From Klebsiella phage Magnus, in the sequence record NC_049462.1: a stretch of DNA of 64,000 nucleotides. One strand, written 5' to 3'. Both the position numbers and the translations under genes were made by a program. Of the stretch, positions 1-62,061 are shown in pieces. Within the stretch, counting starts at the first letter, position 1. Each line of letters opens with the position of its first letter. The notes beneath the pieces are model-generated. The model saw nothing but the letters and a program-made list of their open reading frames with translations. It had not been told where the DNA came from and ran no database searches.

Positions 1-18
1 GACAACACTGGGATTACA

Positions 19-300
19 ATGGATTTTCGTGAGCGCATAGGCCACTTCGAAAATAAGAAAGAATCACAGCGTGAAAAGGAAAGACAAAAACAAGCCGACC
101 TCAAAGAAGACGAAAAGAACAAAAAGATTCCAAAAGGTATACTTCAATGTCTTCGTGGACCACAAAATAATGCTACCGCACAGGCCGAAGATGATTCAGA
201 ACAAGACTTCGGCAAAACCCAATTCAGCCTTGAAGAAATAATGGATAGCCCTACGCTGCTATCCGAATTATCAGGAGAAAAGAATAATGGCGATTGCTAA
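19..300 (+). CDS. Hypothetical basic/acidic small protein (possibly begins upstream of the window); its stop overlaps the gp47 start
   Basis: ORF in frame to 300; lysine/glutamate rich; ends in overlap ...GAATAATGG with the next gene; no recognisable motif. Confidence 0.3.
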   Translation: MDFRERIGHFENKKESQREKERQKQADLKEDEKNKKIPKGILQCLRGPQNNATAQAEDDSEQDFGKTQFSLEEIMDSPTLLSELSGEKNNGDC

Positions 301-9615: not shown

Positions 9616-9648
9616 AATCCCCCTTAAATACAGGGGGATTTCTTTTTC
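9616..9648 (+). terminator. Rho-independent terminator aatccccct-TAAATA-cagggggatt + T8
   Basis: 9-bp stem plus ttctttttc. Confidence 0.7.
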
Positions 9649-12797: not shown

Positions 12798-13286
12798 ATG
12801 AAAACTATCAAAACCATCATCACCAACGGCTCTGTATCTTTCGAACTGAACACCGAAGTTTCCAAAGCAGAAATGTTCCGCATTGCACAGGAAGCCGGTT
12901 TCCAGGGCGGTAAGACCTCCTTCATGAACCTGCTGAGCGGCAAAACTGAAACTGCTTGCGGCTTCACCATGAAAGACCAGATTGTGGTTGACCAGGCGGT
13001 AGTGGCTAAATCCTCTGACAAAGTCAGCATGCTGAAAATGTTTGGCCTGAACATCCACATCGTCGAAGCGAAGACCGAAACCTACGGCACCCTGAACGTC
13101 GGCAAAGGCCGGGTGCAGCTGAACCCGCTGAACAACGGAACCTACTCGGTGATGGTATTCCCGAAAAAAGGCTACGACAACACAGATATCCTGAAAGCGG
13201 TCGGTGGTGATTCTAAATCTCAGTATGTCAAAATGGGCAAACTGACTCTGATCGAAGTACAGAACATGATCGAGCGCCTGGCATAA
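12798..13286 (+). CDS. Hypothetical protein (strong RBS, likely abundant)
   Basis: GAGGA 7 nt upstream of ATG; 162 aa, no recognisable domain; followed by hairpin gggggaggaaactccccc. Confidence 0.5.
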   Translation: MKTIKTIITNGSVSFELNTEVSKAEMFRIAQEAGFQGGKTSFMNLLSGKTETACGFTMKDQIVVDQAVVAKSSDKVSMLKMFGLNIHIVEAKTETYGTLNVGKGRVQLNPLNNGTYSVMVFPKKGYDNTDILKAVGGDSKSQYVKMGKLTLIEVQNMIERLA

Positions 13287-13338
13287 GTCGCTGAGGGGGA
13301 GGAAACTCCCCCATCCTGGAAAGATGAGGAATAAATCG

Positions 13339-13641
13339 ATGAATAAATTCAGCAGCACAGAAGCGACTAAGATTGCGGAAGAAACCGCACAATTACTGGC
13401 TTCACATACTTTAAAAAATTGGCAGATAGATACATGTTCCTTCTCCCAAATTGTCCTTTCTTGTGGGGATGTGTATGTTCAGCATCTACTCCCCACGAGA
13501 TCTTGGCTTGCTGGTTTTAGAGAATATGACGACAATATTACCAGCGATTATGTTGATTCTGCAATAATGGCATACGAAGGTTTAAAGGCTGCTGTTGCAG
13601 AGTCCATTGACGAGTTGAAAGAAATTTACGACAATATGTAA
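13339..13641 (+). CDS. Hypothetical protein
   Basis: ATG 13339 with GAGGA RBS. Confidence 0.4.
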   Translation: MNKFSSTEATKIAEETAQLLASHTLKNWQIDTCSFSQIVLSCGDVYVQHLLPTRSWLAGFREYDDNITSDYVDSAIMAYEGLKAAVAESIDELKEIYDNM

Positions 13642-13672
13642 CGGAATTTCCTCGAGTGTAATTCACTTTCAC

Positions 13673-13705
13673 TTTAAATACCTCTGCAAACATTGCGGAG
13701 GTATT
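13673..13705 (+). promoter_or_regulatory. Late-promoter-like TTTAAATA followed by hairpin cctctgc...gcggagg that sequesters the endolysin RBS
   Basis: TTTAAATA 13673-13680; stem 13681-13687 pairs with 13695-13701, which contains the GGAGG RBS of the endolysin gene (ATG 13711). Confidence 0.45.
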
Positions 13706-13710
13706 TTCTT

Positions 13711-14505
13711 ATGGCCATTTTAAAGATTGGCAGCAAAGGTCTGGAAGTTAAGAATCTTCAGACCAGTCTCAACAAAATCGGGTTCAATCTGGTTGCCGAT
13801 GGCATATTTGGTAAAGCGACTGACAACGCCGTCAGGGCAGTTCAGGCGGGTGCCGGACTCGTCGTTGATGGTATTGCTGGCCCCAAGACCATGTATGCTA
13901 TACGCAACGCAGGGGAGTCTCATCAGGATCATCTGACTGAGGCTGACTTGATTGACGCTGCTCGTGAATTGTCTGTTGACCTTGCTAGCATCAAGGCAGT
14001 CAACCAAGTAGAATCGCGCGGTACTGGCTTCACCAAGTCTGGAAAGATTAAGACATTGTTTGAACGCCACATCATGTACAAAAAGCTGAATGCCAAGTTC
14101 GGTCAGGCAAAAGCCAATGCTCTGGCCCAGCTTTACCCGACGTTGGTTAACGCCAAAGCCGGGGGATACACAGGTGGAGACGCGGAGTTGGAACGACTCC
14201 ATGGTGCAATAGCGATCGATAAAGATTGCGCCTACGAGAGCGCTTCCTACGGGTTATTCCAGATCATGGGGTTCAACTGTGTTATCTGCGGGTACGCAAA
14301 TGCTGAGCAGATGTTCAACGACTTTCTCACTGGTGAACGTGCTCAGCTCATGGCATTTGTCAAGTTCATCAAGGCTGACGCCAATCTGTGGAAAGCATTG
14401 AAGGACAAGAATTGGGCTGAGTTTGCTCGGCGTTACAATGGCCCGGCGTATGCACAGAACCAGTACGACACCAAGCTGGCTGCAGCATACAAATCATTCA
14501 GTTAG
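13711..14505 (+). CDS. Endolysin: N-terminal peptidoglycan-binding domain + muramidase-like catalytic domain (DUF3380-type)
   Basis: PG_binding_1-like repeats LKIGSKGLEVKNLQTSLNKIGF...DGIFGKATDNAVRAVQ...DGIAGPKT; C-terminal ESRG...YGLFQIMGFN catalytic region. Confidence 0.7.
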   Translation: MAILKIGSKGLEVKNLQTSLNKIGFNLVADGIFGKATDNAVRAVQAGAGLVVDGIAGPKTMYAIRNAGESHQDHLTEADLIDAARELSVDLASIKAVNQVESRGTGFTKSGKIKTLFERHIMYKKLNAKFGQAKANALAQLYPTLVNAKAGGYTGGDAELERLHGAIAIDKDCAYESASYGLFQIMGFNCVICGYANAEQMFNDFLTGERAQLMAFVKFIKADANLWKALKDKNWAEFARRYNGPAYAQNQYDTKLAAAYKSFS

Positions 14506-14507
14506 TC

Positions 14508-14532
14508 GAAGGCCGGAAACGGCCTTTTTCTT
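14508..14532 (+). terminator. Terminator hairpin aggccggaaacggcct + T-run
   Basis: GC stem then ttttctttatc. Confidence 0.55.
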
Positions 14533-14611
14533 TATCTATGACAGAGTTATGCTGGGCGCGTCGCTTAATTAAAGGTGATGAGATAACCCCTGTAGAAATA
14601 GGAAGGTTCAC

Positions 14612-15454
14612 ATGCAATCTGCGAGCAAAGTAGTATCCATGAAGCCAGCTGGTAAAACCAAATCAGCGCGCAAGAAAGAAGTAACCCAGCGCGAAGACGA
14701 ATGGATGAAGTTCTCTAAAGGTGATTTCAAAATCGCTCCATTCCATGGCCTCTCTGACAACCAGAATCTTGCCTACCAATCTGCCCTTGAAAACAATCTG
14801 ACCATCACAATCGGACCTGCTGGTACGGGCAAATCATATTGCGGTGCTGCCGCTGCTATCAAACATCTTATTGATCGCCGTGTCAGTAAAATCATCATCT
14901 CTCGTTCGCCGTTGCCAACCGGACAGACTGCGGGGTTCCGCCCCGGCGACACGTATGAAAAACTCGTTCCGTATCTGCGCCCGCTGATCGAAACCTTCAA
15001 GAAAGTGTTGAAGACCGATACTGGCAGCGACGGCTTCTTCAACTATCTGTGGGAGAAGCACATCATCGAAATTCAGGATCTGGAGACGATCAAGGGTATG
15101 ACCTTTGATGACGCCTTCCTGATTATCGAAGAGGCTCAGGAATGCGACATGGAGCAGCTGAAGAATCTTCTCACCCGTTCTTCTGACTCCACCTATGTGT
15201 TCGTCAACGGTGATATCAAGCAGTCGAACAAACGTCTGCGTGACAGCGCCCTTGACACGTATGTCAAAGCATTCCGTGACTTCAACCAGAAACTGAATGC
15301 CGGTACTCTGGCGGTCTATGGGGTAGAACCGGGGGACGCGTATCCTGAATGGGTTCAACCTTTCAGTATCATCGAGTTCAACAAAGATGACCGTAACGGT
15401 CGCGGCAACTTTACCCGCCTGATGCTAGAGGTCAATGACCTGTACGACATTTAA
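14612..15454 (+). CDS. phoH: PhoH-like ATPase
   Basis: Walker A GPAGTGKSY, Walker B-like DDAFLIIEEAQ; typical phage PhoH length. Confidence 0.8.
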   Translation: MQSASKVVSMKPAGKTKSARKKEVTQREDEWMKFSKGDFKIAPFHGLSDNQNLAYQSALENNLTITIGPAGTGKSYCGAAAAIKHLIDRRVSKIIISRSPLPTGQTAGFRPGDTYEKLVPYLRPLIETFKKVLKTDTGSDGFFNYLWEKHIIEIQDLETIKGMTFDDAFLIIEEAQECDMEQLKNLLTRSSDSTYVFVNGDIKQSNKRLRDSALDTYVKAFRDFNQKLNAGTLAVYGVEPGDAYPEWVQPFSIIEFNKDDRNGRGNFTRLMLEVNDLYDI

Positions 15455-15540
15455 ATACCTCATCACCATTCCCCGCCGCCTTCAATCTATGAGGGCGGCG
15501 TATAATAACAACCTGCATATAACACAAACCGAGGATCTCT

Positions 15541-25131: not shown

Positions 25132-25169
25132 ATCGGTCTAAATACCCATAACACCAATGAAACTATGTT

Positions 25170-25781
25170 ATGGGTATTTTTATGAAATATTGCGGAATTG
25201 ACTACTCTTATGGTTGCCCAGCGATTTGTGTCTGGGACGACAAAGATCCTTTGGAATTTAATTCCCTTCGCTTCTATGCATATTACACGGTAGAAAAATA
25301 TTGTCGCCCTATTCGGCCGAACATCAGCATTATGAAGCAACCTGCATATTCCTCCCCTGAAGAAAGATTCTATAACATTTCCAAATGGGCAGAAGCTGTT
25401 CTTCTTACAGAGAAACCTGATTTCATAACCCTCGAGGGTTATGCGATGGGCAACTCTAAGAACTCCAATAATATATGCCAAACCGCTGAGAACACTTCTC
25501 TTTTGAAGCAAGCAATGCGCCGTAATAATATGGAATTCGAAATCATCACTCCTTCTTATACCAAAAAGAATTTCACAGGTAAGGGCACTGCTGACAAACT
25601 TGCTATGATAGCCCACTTCGAGAAGCTGTTCAACGTTAACATGCGCGGTATAATGGATATGTTGGAAGTTAAAGATCCGAAGCCAATCGATGATCTTGTC
25701 GATGGGTTTGCCAATATGGTAGGCGGTTCTGCTTTCAAAGAGAATCATCCCGAATTTAATTCTGAGGTGCACAATGGTTGA
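25170..25781 (+). CDS. RuvC-like Holliday junction resolvase (RNase H fold)
   Basis: RuvC motif order: CGIDYSYGCPA (Asp I), ITLEGYAMG (Glu II), IITPSYTKKNFTGKGTADKLAMIAHF, DDLVDGFANMV (Asp IV). Confidence 0.55.
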   Translation: MGIFMKYCGIDYSYGCPAICVWDDKDPLEFNSLRFYAYYTVEKYCRPIRPNISIMKQPAYSSPEERFYNISKWAEAVLLTEKPDFITLEGYAMGNSKNSNNICQTAENTSLLKQAMRRNNMEFEIITPSYTKKNFTGKGTADKLAMIAHFEKLFNVNMRGIMDMLEVKDPKPIDDLVDGFANMVGGSAFKENHPEFNSEVHNG

Positions 25782-26070: not shown

Positions 26071-26302
26071 TTATGCATGCAAAGGATGTGGTCATTTTTT
26101 CAGCCAGCGCAAGACCTGTGCTGAGCGCCATACTCCTGAACTTGATCCCTGCAGCGAATGTGGTGGTCAGATTTCTATGGTAATTGGCGCTCCAAAAATC
26201 GTTTCCGGTGTCCGTGGTCCTCAATCTGCTCCGGACGGGTTCAAAGATGTTCTTCGGCAGATCAAGAAGACATCGGGTAAGGGGAACACAATCGATGTCT
26301 GA
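26057..26302 (+). CDS. FmdB-family zinc-ribbon protein
   Basis: MPFYDYACKGCGHFF...CSECGG (CxxC...CxxC), N-terminal pattern typical of FmdB zinc ribbon. Confidence 0.55.
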   Translation: MPFYDYACKGCGHFFSQRKTCAERHTPELDPCSECGGQISMVIGAPKIVSGVRGPQSAPDGFKDVLRQIKKTSGKGNTIDV

Positions 26303-26537
26303 CGGACAAATCGCTCAGGTGTTGACGCCTGATTCATTTTCAGAGATGGTATTGATGCGCGCGCAGACCACCAGGGAAAGCCTCCTGGAAACAATGGCCA
26401 GCGTGTGCGAAGAGTATGATATCGAGGAATCTAAGATTCGCAAGATGATTACACCGCCTCTGTTATCCCGTTTAACAGCTGAGTGCGCTGATGCTCGTTT
26501 GTTGAAAGGTGAACTGAAATCCAAGAAAATTTTATAG
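26295..26537 (+). CDS. Hypothetical protein
   Basis: ATGTCTGA overlap with upstream gene. Confidence 0.35.
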   Translation: MSDGQIAQVLTPDSFSEMVLMRAQTTRESLLETMASVCEEYDIEESKIRKMITPPLLSRLTAECADARLLKGELKSKKIL

Positions 26538-28401: not shown

Positions 28402-29346
28402 ATTGCTGGCGACTCTCTTCAACATCCCCAACAGACTACTTTTTTCGGACGCCGTCAGGTTGTCATTGCCGAGAATATCCCTCTGGATGCCGATCGAGAT
28501 GCGCTCGAAGTCGGCCAGGCTTATTCCCGCCATATTGTTTACCAATTGATCGAGTTGCTTGTAGGCAAGAAGGGCTTCACCCGTGAAGTTGCCTTGCTCG
28601 AGCTTCTTATAAAGCTGCCCGGCCTTTGACGCAGCGGTTTCCCAATCTCCGGAAGCAAGAGCATCAGCAATACCCAGAGGAAGAAAGTCGCTGGCGAGGC
28701 TGCGTGTTTCATATTCTGTCTCCGATAGGACTTTGTTGTATGAGAATGAAATATTGTATTGGTTAAATTGATCTGTGGCACCTTTGTCAAGTTCAATAGA
28801 CGAGAAGTTTACAGGATGCGCTTCAACAATATAAACCCGGTGGACAACCTGATCTTCTGTGTCCAATTGTTCAATGCAAATATCGGTTACAAAATCTTCG
28901 TAATAACCCATCTTTGTAGTGAGAGGATCGAAGATTAAATTCTTCCATTTGTCCATAACAGACTTTTCATAATAGTCATTGGCCAAAAGGAATGAGAGTT
29001 CCAAATCAACGTTTGATTTGTTATTCGGCATTTTGATATGGTTGCCGTTATTATTCATAGGTGTCGTGTCGATACCGACACCTGGCAATGACGCAACCAT
29101 ACACATCATTTGGAGAGAACGAGAAGTTTGGTTTGTCCCTCCAAAGAATGCGTTTACGATACGCGCTGTGGAACGGAACAAGTCGCCAAATGACGTTGTA
29201 TCTGAGGTGTACGCTTGACCATCATTGGCTAATGTAGCATTAGAGTCAAAGATGCCTGCAGGCAAGGGGATAGTCACCTGGAATCTGTTCTTCCTTGACA
29301 GACCGCGCTGCAACATCTGTGTAATAAAATTGCGATAGTCTTCCAC
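28399..29346 (-). CDS. Late-expressed structural-type protein (tail/baseplate candidate)
   Basis: Preceded on minus strand by TATAAATA (29381-29388) and GGAG RBS with GTG start at 29346 (track ORF starts at TTG 29406 upstream of the promoter); no confident family assignment. Confidence 0.45.
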   Translation of the reverse strand: MEDYRNFITQMLQRGLSRKNRFQVTIPLPAGIFDSNATLANDGQAYTSDTTSFGDLFRSTARIVNAFFGGTNQTSRSLQMMCMVASLPGVGIDTTPMNNNGNHIKMPNNKSNVDLELSFLLANDYYEKSVMDKWKNLIFDPLTTKMGYYEDFVTDICIEQLDTEDQVVHRVYIVEAHPVNFSSIELDKGATDQFNQYNISFSYNKVLSETEYETRSLASDFLPLGIADALASGDWETAASKAGQLYKKLEQGNFTGEALLAYKQLDQLVNNMAGISLADFERISIGIQRDILGNDNLTASEKSSLLGMLKRVASN

Positions 29347-29380
29347 GATGAGGACTCCACTTAAATAATAGATCTGAAGG

Positions 29381-29388
29381 TATTTATA
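29381..29388 (-). promoter_or_regulatory. T4-type late promoter TATAAATA (minus strand)
   Basis: Plus-strand TATTTATA at 29381-29388; perfect match to T4 late consensus; about 35 nt upstream of GTG start. Confidence 0.5.
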
Positions 29389-29399
29389 GGAGTTGACAA

Positions 29400-30107
29400 A
29401 TGGCAAAGAATGCGATGGGTGAAGAAGATCCGCTGCTGCTTCCAGCCGAAATGGATGCTCCCGAATTGGTGAAGCGCTACATCCGAAAGTACCGCCAGCA
29501 CTTCGGGGCCGAAGCCAAGCGTAATATTCGCCGCTCCCACGTGTGGTTCATGGAACGTGTGTCTAAGGATGCCAACCTGACCCCACAGCATATGATGAAA
29601 GCATTTGCTGAGAACAAGCGCCCGGTACAGGGTGTCCGCTATATGATCGGACGCATGTTCTATTTCAAATATGATGCCCTGACAAAAGAAGAGTTGCCAT
29701 ACTGGGACATGTATCCCTTGGTATTTTTCTTCAATTTTGCCAAGGGGGATGGGATTAATTTTGGTGAGCGTGGCGTGACTTATCTGTGGGGGCTTAACCT
29801 TCATTATCTTCCACCAAAACTCCGGCTTTTGGTATTTGAAGACCTGATTAAATTGAGGAATGAAAGGGCATATCGTTCCAAAACCCGTTTGCGATTAACG
29901 TGGGATGCATTGAAACGGTTCGCCAACCATCCTCTGTATGAACATTGCGTCAAACTTTACAGGGCTGATCGGTTCAGAACACAGCTTTATGAAATCGAAC
30001 CACAATATTGGGAAGTTGTCCTCTTTATGCGTACTGCACGCTTCCAGAAACAAAGCCAGGCCAGCGTCTGGAAGGATGCTCGCATGCGCCATAAACCCAA
30101 AAAGTGA
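29400..30107 (+). CDS. Hypothetical basic protein
   Basis: AGGAG RBS 8 nt upstream; 235 aa; divergent from the late gene. Confidence 0.45.
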   Translation: MAKNAMGEEDPLLLPAEMDAPELVKRYIRKYRQHFGAEAKRNIRRSHVWFMERVSKDANLTPQHMMKAFAENKRPVQGVRYMIGRMFYFKYDALTKEELPYWDMYPLVFFFNFAKGDGINFGERGVTYLWGLNLHYLPPKLRLLVFEDLIKLRNERAYRSKTRLRLTWDALKRFANHPLYEHCVKLYRADRFRTQLYEIEPQYWEVVLFMRTARFQKQSQASVWKDARMRHKPKK

Positions 30108-59407: not shown

Positions 59408-59599
59408 TTATAATTTCCTGGATGCGATCAGGAAACTGACGACAGATACAGCACCAAACAGCCCAGATAATATAAATCTGACCAAAGGGAAGTCAGGGGC
59501 CGCAACAAGACTGACTGCGTTTTCCAGGCATATCATGAATGATATACCACAAATCATTCCCAGGGCGAACTGATTCGGTTTATGACGTAAACGTACCAT
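59408..59599 (-). CDS. Small membrane protein (2 TM)
   Basis: FALGMICGISFMICLENAVSLVAA and FILSGLFGAVSVVSFLIA. Confidence 0.4.
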   Translation of the reverse strand: MVRLRHKPNQFALGMICGISFMICLENAVSLVAAPDFPLVRFILSGLFGAVSVVSFLIASRKL

Positions 59600-59644
59600 T
59601 TCACACCTCCTCTGGTTGAATATAGGGGCTTTGGCCCCTATTAT

Positions 59645-60127
59645 TTAGCCGAGAAAGACAACTAGTTCAACAGTAAATAATCTTTCTATGTTGTGCGCTA
59701 TCATATTCCATGTTTCTTCTACTCTAGAGGTTCCAATCTCGTCTGTGATTATAAGAATTCTTATATTTCGATTGGATATGATATGATGTTTATTACTGAA
59801 ATCATATTTTGTTATGACGTTGTTTCTATCATCTATCGTTGGAAAGTCTTTGAACATACGTTGTTCTTTATCGTACAAAGCCAAAACTTCAATACCAGTT
59901 TTGGAATAAAAATCATTAGACACTATTTGTTTTAACGCGGCTGTATGCCCTGTTGCCCTCATCACTCTGTAGTATATCGCGTTATCACGAAGAAAATGAT
60001 AATGGCTGGTCTTTGATGTGGATGCCCTATGTTTAACAACTTCTAAAGAATCTATCAATAATTGCTTTATCAATTCAATATGTGGGGTGATCGCGATATT
60101 TACTTCACGTTTGACTAATGAATTCAT
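59645..60127 (-). CDS. Hypothetical protein
   Basis: Start at MNSLVKRE (60127) with GAGGA RBS 8 nt upstream; N-terminal extension in the track ORF unlikely. Confidence 0.4.
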   Translation of the reverse strand: MNSLVKREVNIAITPHIELIKQLLIDSLEVVKHRASTSKTSHYHFLRDNAIYYRVMRATGHTAALKQIVSNDFYSKTGIEVLALYDKEQRMFKDFPTIDDRNNVITKYDFSNKHHIISNRNIRILIITDEIGTSRVEETWNMIAHNIERLFTVELVVFLG

Positions 60128-61260: not shown

Positions 61261-61619
61261 TCATCCAAATCGTTGTTCAGAGCCATCATCAGCTCGTTAT
61301 CTGGTTCATAAGAACCGGAACATAAATCATCTCTCCATACACCTAACGTCAACAACGCTGCTTTCAGACGAGGATGTTGGGACTTGTCAGTTTTCAACAC
61401 CAACATTCGGCATACTGCTTCAGTCTCAAACGTGTTGAAAAGTGTAATCAATTGATTGATAAGGACTCGGGGACTTTTCCCGGGGACAAATCGTTTCAAT
61501 GATTGATTAATTAGCGAAATTCGCTGAATGTCCACCATCAAATCATCTCTTGAGACACAAGGAGTAATATAATGTCTCAGAGCGTATTCCATTAAATTGC
61601 TTTCATCAACAATAGGCAT
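61227..61619 (-). CDS. Hypothetical protein
   Basis: 130-aa ORF overlapping the Ig-domain gene start. Confidence 0.35.
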   Translation of the reverse strand: MPIVDESNLMEYALRHYITPCVSRDDLMVDIQRISLINQSLKRFVPGKSPRVLINQLITLFNTFETEAVCRMLVLKTDKSQHPRLKAALLTLGVWRDDLCSGSYEPDNELMMALNNDLDEWRKPCQQSMY

Positions 61620-61650
61620 ATAGAATAAGTTCAGCTGTTGTACACTGAAC

Positions 61651-62061
61651 TTATTTAATCTGAAGTTTTTCGATCAATTTGGCGATCAGTTTGTCCCGGT
61701 CTGTTTCTACAATCCCCAGAGGCTCACCCAATACCGACAGATCATTGATATCCAGAAGATTGAGGGTTTCTACTGTAATATCAGTGCTGATGACCGTGCC
61801 CGGTTCTATCGGTCGGCCGAATTTGTCGCGACCATAACGTTTGAGGGTACTGGCAAGCCCGGTTAGCTCCTCCAGAAGCTCCTTATCGCCGTTTTTATGC
61901 TCGCACACCCAACCATAGTCGCCAGCATATACCGTGGCGCCGTCGCCAACGTTCGGGATGTTATCCAGGATGCGCTGCAGGTATGATGGGATTTTCTGTT
62001 CTTCTACTGCGGTGATTGGGTCAACAACAGCAGTATCTTTAACTTTCGGTGTCTTGGCCAT
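61651..62061 (-). CDS. Hypothetical protein
   Basis: Start at MAKTPKVKD (62061) with AGGAGA RBS. Confidence 0.4.
   Translation of the reverse strand: MAKTPKVKDTAVVDPITAVEEQKIPSYLQRILDNIPNVGDGATVYAGDYGWVCEHKNGDKELLEELTGLASTLKRYGRDKFGRPIEPGTVISTDITVETLNLLDINDLSVLGEPLGIVETDRDKLIAKLIEKLQIK

Follow-up and report, generated by a model that had tools for sequence, protein, structure and literature searches.

Premature synthesis of an endolysin is a danger for a phage, and phage T4 answers it with a hairpin that only late transcripts escape. In T4 gene e, the late promoters lie inside a hairpin which sequesters the ribosome-binding site (RBS) (McPheeters et al. 1986, reviewed in PMC3014915). The arrangement of hairpin and late promoter was described for T4 e, soc, 49, I-TevI, and segB, and for Aeh1 mobE (PMC3014915, PMC2988022). 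In the family Ackermannviridae, a conserved ('Viunalikevirus') motif, CTAAATAcCcc, is quoted in PMC7283392, putative late promoters were annotated in phage LIMEstone1 (PMC3296691), and homologues of gp55, gp33, and gp45 were reported for ViI-like phages (PMC3184105, PMC3121705). The present analysis concerns the leader of the endolysin gene of Klebsiella phage Magnus (NC_049462.1), in a stretch of 64,000 nucleotides (nt) that is called the window below. The T4 mechanism and the Ackermannviridae motif, late-promoter annotation, and terminator annotation are already known, each separately. In the accessible Ackermannviridae literature, no text was found that joins the three into an RBS switch or into a hairpin complementary to the Shine-Dalgarno (SD) sequence.

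The endolysin leader was read as a composite switch of the T4 gene e type, i.e., a late promoter within an SD-sequestering hairpin, and the probability of this reading was estimated at roughly 0.6. The element as observed was confirmed, and from it we infer the switch mechanism at the endolysin. An earlier note on this DNA had proposed the gene e-type mechanism. The proposal agreed with all computational tests run, i.e., occlusion, motif position, gp55 and gp33, and conservation, but its stem, consensus, terminator, and specificity had to be corrected. The features of the leader are as follows, in window coordinates.

13674-13684, plus strand: late-promoter-like motif TTAAATACCTC, core TAAATA at 13675-13680, matching 9 of 11 positions of the Ackermannviridae CTAAATAcCcc
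13676-13689, plus strand: 5' arm of the hairpin, AAAUACCUCUGCAA, overlapping the promoter core and bearing the anti-SD CCUCU (RNAfold)
13686-13688, plus strand: predicted late transcription start, G13686 to A13688, 6-8 nt past the last A of TAAATA
13690-13692, plus strand: hairpin loop ACA, 3 nt (RNAfold)
13693-13706, plus strand: 3' arm of the hairpin, UUGCGGAGGUAUUU, including GGAGG at 13697-13701 (RNAfold); an RBS is annotated here in Klebsiella phage Madison
13702-13710, plus strand: U-rich tract TATTTTCTT from the G+C core of the stem to the ATG, a terminator-like tail (from the sequence)
13711-14505, plus strand: endolysin gene, 264 amino acids (aa), domains PG_binding_1 and N-acetylmuramidase PF11860

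The locus shares several features with T4 e. In both, a lysis enzyme gene lies downstream of earlier-expressed genes of the same strand, and its SD is buried in a helix. In both, a late TATA-like box lies in the DNA for the 5' strand of that helix, and late RNAs lack this strand, which is a prediction for Magnus. Late transcription dependent on gp55, gp33, and the sliding clamp is also common to the two phages, as judged for Magnus from its genes. The differences are likewise clear. The promoter core is (C/T)TAAATAcc in Magnus, not TATAAATA; there is one promoter instead of two; and the stem precedes a U tract, which makes it terminator-like, in a phage of the family Ackermannviridae. The enzyme of T4 gene e has a lysozyme fold. 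That the Magnus endolysin is not homologous to it, as the earlier note had held, was supported by the domain assignment to PG_binding_1 and a PF11860 muramidase, the T4 side of this comparison being general knowledge. An effect of about 100-fold is cited for T4 e in the review (PMC3014915), whereas for Magnus the switch is a proposal from the sequence.

The coordinates given before were all borne out, i.e., TTTAAATA at 13673-13680, CCTCTGC at 13681-13687, GCGGAGG at 13695-13701, and the ATG at 13711. The 7-base-pair (bp) stem with one G-U pair was correct as far as it went but understated, and RNAfold extended it to 14 bp. The motif had been placed immediately 5' of the stem, which did not hold: five of its eight bases (AAATA, 13676-13680) form the base of the 5' arm. 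The segment 13673-13713 (41 nt) folded with -18.2 kcal/mol against -3.5 +/- 2.1 kcal/mol in shuffled sequences (z -7.1), and none of 200 shuffles was as stable. The endolysin leader hairpin is far beyond chance. The mechanical open reading frame (ORF) list had placed a TTG start within the hairpin, at 13693; this was rejected, as every related record starts the endolysin at the equivalent of ATG 13711.

The region 13000-15500 matched 259 phage records, of which Madison was the top hit with 99.8% identity, and the close relatives of the window are classed as Ackermannviridae, genus Taipeivirus. Because the window and Madison showed no difference between 13600 and the endolysin start, the genome of Madison, which is annotated in full (157,834 bp, 198 coding sequences), was used as the genome-wide background. 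In the LIMEstone1 GenBank record, the homologous hexamer, 31-36 nt before the endolysin ATG, is annotated as the -10 signal of a 'putative late promoter'. In the window, TTAAATACCTC is intergenic and its core is separated from the ATG by 30 nt.

The T4 late promoter TATAAATA, which had been taken as the reference, was not enriched in the window; the relevant consensus is the Ackermannviridae CTAAATAcCcc or NTAAATA. Exact TATAAATA occurred once against 1.5 expected, and with one mismatch or fewer, i.e., the motif as defined earlier, 39 copies were found in the window against 49.6 expected, which is not beyond chance. YTAAATA also gave 11 copies in the window against 15.5 expected. Since the counts carry no signal by themselves, they were dropped as evidence, and only the position relative to gene starts was informative. 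Madison has 63 TAAATA copies on its two strands, of which 27 are sense-oriented and no more than 80 nt upstream of an annotated start, against 3.2 expected. All 27, the endolysin site among them, are 23-48 nt from the start codon, and they mostly precede baseplate, tail spike, tail fibre, neck, sheath, prohead, and DNA-end-protector genes. The base preceding TAAATA is C at 14 of these sites, T at 6, A at 6, and G at 1, and a preceding C was found in only 2 of the other 36 copies.

In T4, about one helical turn separates the TATA box from the downstream +1 (PMC2988020). At 16 of the 27 upstream sites the 6th base 3' of the motif is A, and the same number holds for the 7th; from this A-richness together with the T4 spacing rule, the late start was predicted at 13686-13688. 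A start at an A about one helical turn from TAAATA would fit the A-richness, as in T4. The predicted late RNA would keep at most 4 nt of the 5' arm. Two genes of the late transcription machinery were assigned in the window.

1-300, plus strand: 3' end of a gp55-type late sigma gene, last 99 codons (phrog_234, E 4e-54)
26295-26537, plus strand: gp33-type late transcription co-activator gene, 80 aa (phrog_254, E 3.9e-22)

Sliding-clamp genes are annotated in Madison. Together with the gp55-like and gp33-like genes, late machinery of the T4 type is present.

Occlusion was calculated for all 198 Madison genes as the ensemble free energy needed to unpair positions -15 to +5 of an RNA that runs from -100 to +30. 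Opening the translation initiation region (TIR) of the endolysin costs 19.5 kcal/mol, i.e., rank 3 of 198, where the median is 6.5 and the 95th percentile 15.6 kcal/mol. For RNAs starting 5-9 nt past the motif, the cost falls to 8.6-9.2 kcal/mol, and these shortened RNAs fold no more stably than shuffles do (z +0.43 and +0.49). The contrast of full and shortened leaders proposed in the earlier note therefore came out as expected, with the RBS hidden at full length and opened in the predicted late RNAs. The same tendency was found over the genome. The median TIR cost was 11.9 kcal/mol for genes with the motif and 6.3 kcal/mol for the rest (Mann-Whitney p = 7.6e-6). The top decile of occlusion held 11 of the 27 motif genes against 9 of the 171 others (odds ratio 12.4, Fisher p = 3e-6). 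Truncation relieved motif genes by 5.2 kcal/mol, against 0.7 kcal/mol for non-motif genes cut at -25 as a control (p = 5e-7).

In the proposed mechanism, a gp55-type late promoter (TTAAATACC, core 13675-13680) would be built into the 5' arm of the 14-bp hairpin, about 35 nt before the endolysin ATG, and the 3' arm would serve as the SD region. RNA coming from upstream, i.e., from early or middle genes of the same strand near the primase gene, would carry both arms; the hairpin would form and hide GGAGG. With its UAUUUUCUU tail, the hairpin would probably also end most incoming transcripts shortly ahead of the ATG. Redirected by gp55, gp33, and the sliding clamp, the host polymerase would start about 6-8 nt past TAAATA, near 13686-13688 and inside the 5' arm. 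The late mRNA would then lack the anti-SD strand and offer an open RBS, and the terminator at 14508-14527 would close a one-gene late unit. We infer the use of TAAATA as a promoter, the RNA start, the arrival of upstream RNA at the hairpin, and the size of the effect on translation and termination.

The predicted design is not endolysin-specific. It was found at about nine further late genes, i.e., about ten with the endolysin. In its clear form, a C-rich strand comes after TAAATA and can pair with the G-rich SD region, which is usually GGGGTATTTT and lies shortly ahead of the ATG. The clear and the looser cases in Madison, and the two sister elements in the window, are listed below.

Madison 27915: tail spike gene, clear design
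Madison 30846: tail fibre gene, clear design
Madison 45607: neck gene, clear design
Madison 62615: gene of a hypothetical protein, clear design, also with the TTTAAATA variant and a 3' end ...GGTATTTTCTTATG as at the endolysin
Madison 118258: RuvC-like resolvase gene, clear design; equals window ATG 25182
Madison 15738, minus strand: looser version, 5' arm upstream of the motif and motif within the loop
Madison 23989: baseplate wedge gene, looser version
Madison 155076, minus strand: looser version; equals window 61619-61659
Window 25138-25184, plus strand: resolvase sister element, CTAAATA at 25138-25144, 5' arm 25140-25153, 3' arm 25166-25179, ATG 25182
Window 61619-61659, minus strand: sister element, TTAAATA and a 12-bp hairpin of 61644-61655 with 61624-61635, -14.1 kcal/mol

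The resolvase leader has the sequence CTAAATACCCATAACA...TGTTATGGGTATTT, with a second in-frame ATG at 25170. The minus-strand hairpin at 61619-61659 ends 4 nt before the ATG (61619) of a 130-aa ORF without an obvious SD. For the Madison counterpart of this ORF (155076-155468), opening takes 14.6 kcal/mol in the read-through context and about 1.2 kcal/mol in the predicted late transcript. Like T4 49, soc, and I-TevI, the Magnus-type elements occur at several genes per genome, and the second clear case of the window is a Holliday-junction resolvase, the functional counterpart of T4 49 (endonuclease VII), which is among the four classic cases of T4. Unlike T4 49, this resolvase is RuvC-like by domain assignment, i.e., of a different protein family from endonuclease VII. 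Several members are tail spike or tail fibre genes, for which the cited T4 cases give no precedent.

CC directly follows TAAATA at 8 of the 27 upstream sites of Madison, and at 6 of these 8 sites this run of C pairs with the run of G at the SD. In the published motif, the 'cCcc' tail would therefore reflect the hairpin and not promoter recognition, which offers an explanation of the C-rich tail in a conserved family motif. About two thirds of the late promoter sites are without a hairpin. The hairpin class is a subset of the late promoters and no universal rule.

Two other arrangements of the motif were seen in the window. At 59599-59649 on the minus strand, CTAAATA is fused to a hairpin ATAGGGGC-CAAA-GCCCCTAT, clear of the GAGGAGG SD of a 63-aa ORF; promoter and terminator seem to overlap here while the RBS is left free. 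At 29346-29400, two divergent late-promoter-like boxes on both strands form an inverted repeat, with TATAAATACC on the minus strand toward a baseplate tail-tube gene and TTAAATAAT on the plus strand toward a gp2-like DNA end protector gene. The sole exact TATAAATA of the window falls within this segment.

By comparison of related genomes, the predicted design is conserved over five Ackermannviridae genera, the diverged Miltonvirus leader included. DNA similarity to the other genera starts only about 45-60 nt before the endolysin ATG, and the upstream gene differs. The leader hardly varies among Taipei-, Kutter-, Agtre-, and Limestonevirus. One-sided changes affect three pairs of the endolysin helix; of the seven changed cells, six still pair (C-G or U-G) and one breaks. 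The closing A-U pair beside the loop is unpaired in five of six sequences. As no double changes occur at this stem, the covariation test is powerless there. In the Serratia phages phiMAM1 and 3M (Miltonvirus), the endolysin is 62% identical and the leader has diverged to AATAAATACCCTCTG-ATATACCAA-CAGAGGGTTTTTCATTATG, but the motif is retained, as are an anti-SD/SD stem of 8 bp and a U tract. These leaders were folded singly because MAFFT gave no structural register.

The resolvase element gives clearer evidence of conservation, by sequence comparison, than the endolysin stem. Three of its pairs change on both sides (A-U to U-A, A-U to G-C, and outer A-U/G-C), a result reached by 3 of 500 shuffles. 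No pair is broken in the conserved core of the stem, most sequences are unpaired only at the outermost and the loop-closing pairs, and some genomes have a matched G:C insertion in the hairpin. As a side observation, the neck-protein leader hairpin CTAAATACCTTCA...TGAGGGTA is retained in Taipei-, Kutter-, and Agtre-like genomes, and LIMEstone1 has an unstructured A+T-rich leader instead. Single hairpins can thus be lost while the promoter box stays.

The U-rich tail raises the question of termination, for which two more features are needed.

13324-13641, plus strand: upstream ORF, 105 aa, without Pfam match, stop TAA at 13639-13641; hypothetical protein in Madison
14508-14527, plus strand: strong intrinsic terminator right after the endolysin stop, GAAGGCCG-GAAA-CGGCCTTT, then TTCTTTATCT (terminator scan); also annotated in KWBSE43-6 and LIMEstone1

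The endolysin hairpin may be explained as the terminator of the upstream operon, overlapped by a late promoter in the 69-nt intergenic space, so that burial of the SD would be a side effect without regulatory consequence, since next to no RNA from upstream would get past the terminator. As a complete account, this is rather unlikely. The upstream ORF lies on the endolysin strand and the stem-loop begins 35 nt past its stop, where transcripts of this ORF would meet it. The stem's nine upper pairs include five G-C or C-G pairs, and its G+C core is followed by UAUUUUCUU; the Miltonvirus tail is even better, GGGUUUUUCAUU. Madison and KWBSE43-6 (ARNOLD) carry a terminator annotation for this hairpin, and for Menlow, May, and Maynard the match is listed with terminator features. 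The simple terminator scan of the window, however, did not list it. It resembles Rho-independent terminators that overlap an RBS in its stable stem-loop, its distance from the stop codon, and, in part, its U-rich tail. It departs from them in that the five pairs at the bottom of the stem are A-U and take up some of the U tract (five bases of UAUUUUCUU pair with the upstream AAAUA), in that the 5' arm holds a promoter motif, and in that other members of the class have no U tract. The fusion at 59599-59649, which leaves the SD untouched, also speaks for the terminator explanation. In contrast, the hairpins of the Madison neck gene (45607), 15738 (minus strand), and the baseplate wedge gene (23989) bury the SD without any U tract, and the resolvase hairpin of Limestone- and Agtrevirus, which precedes ACAUG and has no U run, is nevertheless kept by compensatory changes. 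From these three members and the maintained resolvase hairpin, occlusion was taken as the shared feature. The end of the 3' arm is also always 2-12 nt from the start codon, a spacing that a terminator would not call for. The two roles are not mutually exclusive, and termination is probably a second role at a subset including the endolysin. The claim that read-through transcripts are silent needs a correction: the SD is occluded in the predicted fold, but with the UAUUUUCUU tail and the terminator annotations, upstream RNAs may be mostly terminated. Annotators should note that, in these genomes, a 'terminator' label right in front of a late gene overlaps a promoter and an RBS; the Madison RBS feature at the 3' arm overlaps its annotated terminator.

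The hairpin might otherwise be an element of RNA processing or stability, i.e., a target of RNase III or RNase E, or a DNA inverted repeat serving the late promoter, with no block of translation. This is very unlikely. The inverted repeat does take in the promoter core (TAAATA with TATTT), the resolvase element of some genera is a perfect palindrome with TAAATA on both strands, and the divergent promoters at 29346-29400 form an inverted repeat as well. Yet about two thirds of the late-gene TAAATA sites have no such repeat, so that promoter function does not depend on it. For RNase III, a stem of 14 bp is short, and the hairpin cannot stabilise late transcripts because those would not contain it. 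Even less credible is pure coincidence of an A+T-rich hexamer and a stable stem, with the endolysin expressed from upstream promoters like its neighbours. The counts of TATAAATA-like and YTAAATA strings in the window, which are not over-represented, would agree with it. The roughly eight-fold positional enrichment of the motif upstream of starts, the hairpin z of -7.1, and the two-part design at about ten genes, kept in five genera including the diverged leader, do not.

Several points weigh against the gene e-type switch itself. The literature searched gave no transcript 5' or 3' ends, transcription start sites, transcription maps, or translation data for Ackermannviridae, and promoters go unmentioned in a 2024 review of the family. 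The predicted late endolysin mRNA still costs about 9 kcal/mol to open, more than the genome median. In the 20-kb structural regions of four phages of other genera, motif and non-motif genes did not differ significantly, with 4-6 motif genes each. The endolysin site carries T and not the preferred C before TAAATA, a variant seen at 6 of the 27 upstream sites, and the segment from the motif to the predicted start is C-rich, where T4 late promoters are A+T-rich (PMC2988020). The endolysin stem has no double-sided covariation; among Taipei-, Kutter-, Agtre-, and Limestonevirus, 10 of its 14 pairs never change, and each arm is under a constraint of its own, the 5' arm as promoter and the 3' arm as SD. 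Finally, the U-rich tail allows a pure terminator role, which would leave few read-through RNAs to silence.

If the switch operates as proposed, a regulatory design would outlive the swap of the genes it controls, since here it lies on an unrelated muramidase and a RuvC-like resolvase. It also gives a testable model of late control for a phage family much used in phage therapy and biocontrol. We tentatively put forward a further possibility, that CTAAATAcCcc marks a three-in-one cassette of about 35 nt, i.e., a late -10 box, an anti-SD C-run pairing with the G-rich SD, and a U tract after the stem. If true, one hairpin would terminate incoming transcription, lock read-through RNA, and be disarmed by an internal start. 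Late genes could then sit inside early operons or move as modules, with the endolysin, resolvase, and tail spikes as candidates, and the same control on non-homologous functional analogues of T4 e and T4 49 would be explained.

The endolysin shares its strand with the primase gene and two small genes of unknown function, and phoH and nrdAB lie downstream. It is a lysis gene within a cluster of replication and nucleotide metabolism. In the LIMEstone1 record, a putative middle promoter is annotated three genes upstream of the endolysin. A perfect TTCAAT-N14-TATAAT, the other conserved Ackermannviridae motif, was found at 15481-15506 on the plus strand, 35 nt upstream of nrdA, and is probably an early or middle promoter. 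With two mismatches or fewer, this motif gave 22 matches in the window against 9.3 expected, a number reached by none of 100 shuffles. Given the terminator at 14508-14527 and this probable promoter before nrdA, the endolysin looks like an insulated one-gene late unit in an earlier-expressed cluster. TAAATACC at 15452-15459, which overlaps the phoH stop upstream of the nrdA motif, was set aside as probably incidental.

Madison and FKP14 carry a homing endonuclease gene (Madison 107511-108230) between the endolysin and phoH, and the window (14505-14612) is without it. The start region of the Madison gene is strongly structured, with 14.1 kcal/mol to open, which recalls the hairpin-regulated homing endonucleases of T4. 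The coordinate offset between the window and Madison varies along the whole length (92887, 92983, 93664, 93076, 93556, and 93849). Several further insertions or deletions therefore separate both phages, and these may be mobile elements. At 9617-9645 on the plus strand, a terminator-like hairpin AATCCCCC/GGGGGATT, whose loop holds TTAAATA, is followed by TCTTTTTC and lies 23 nt ahead of a 120-aa ORF.

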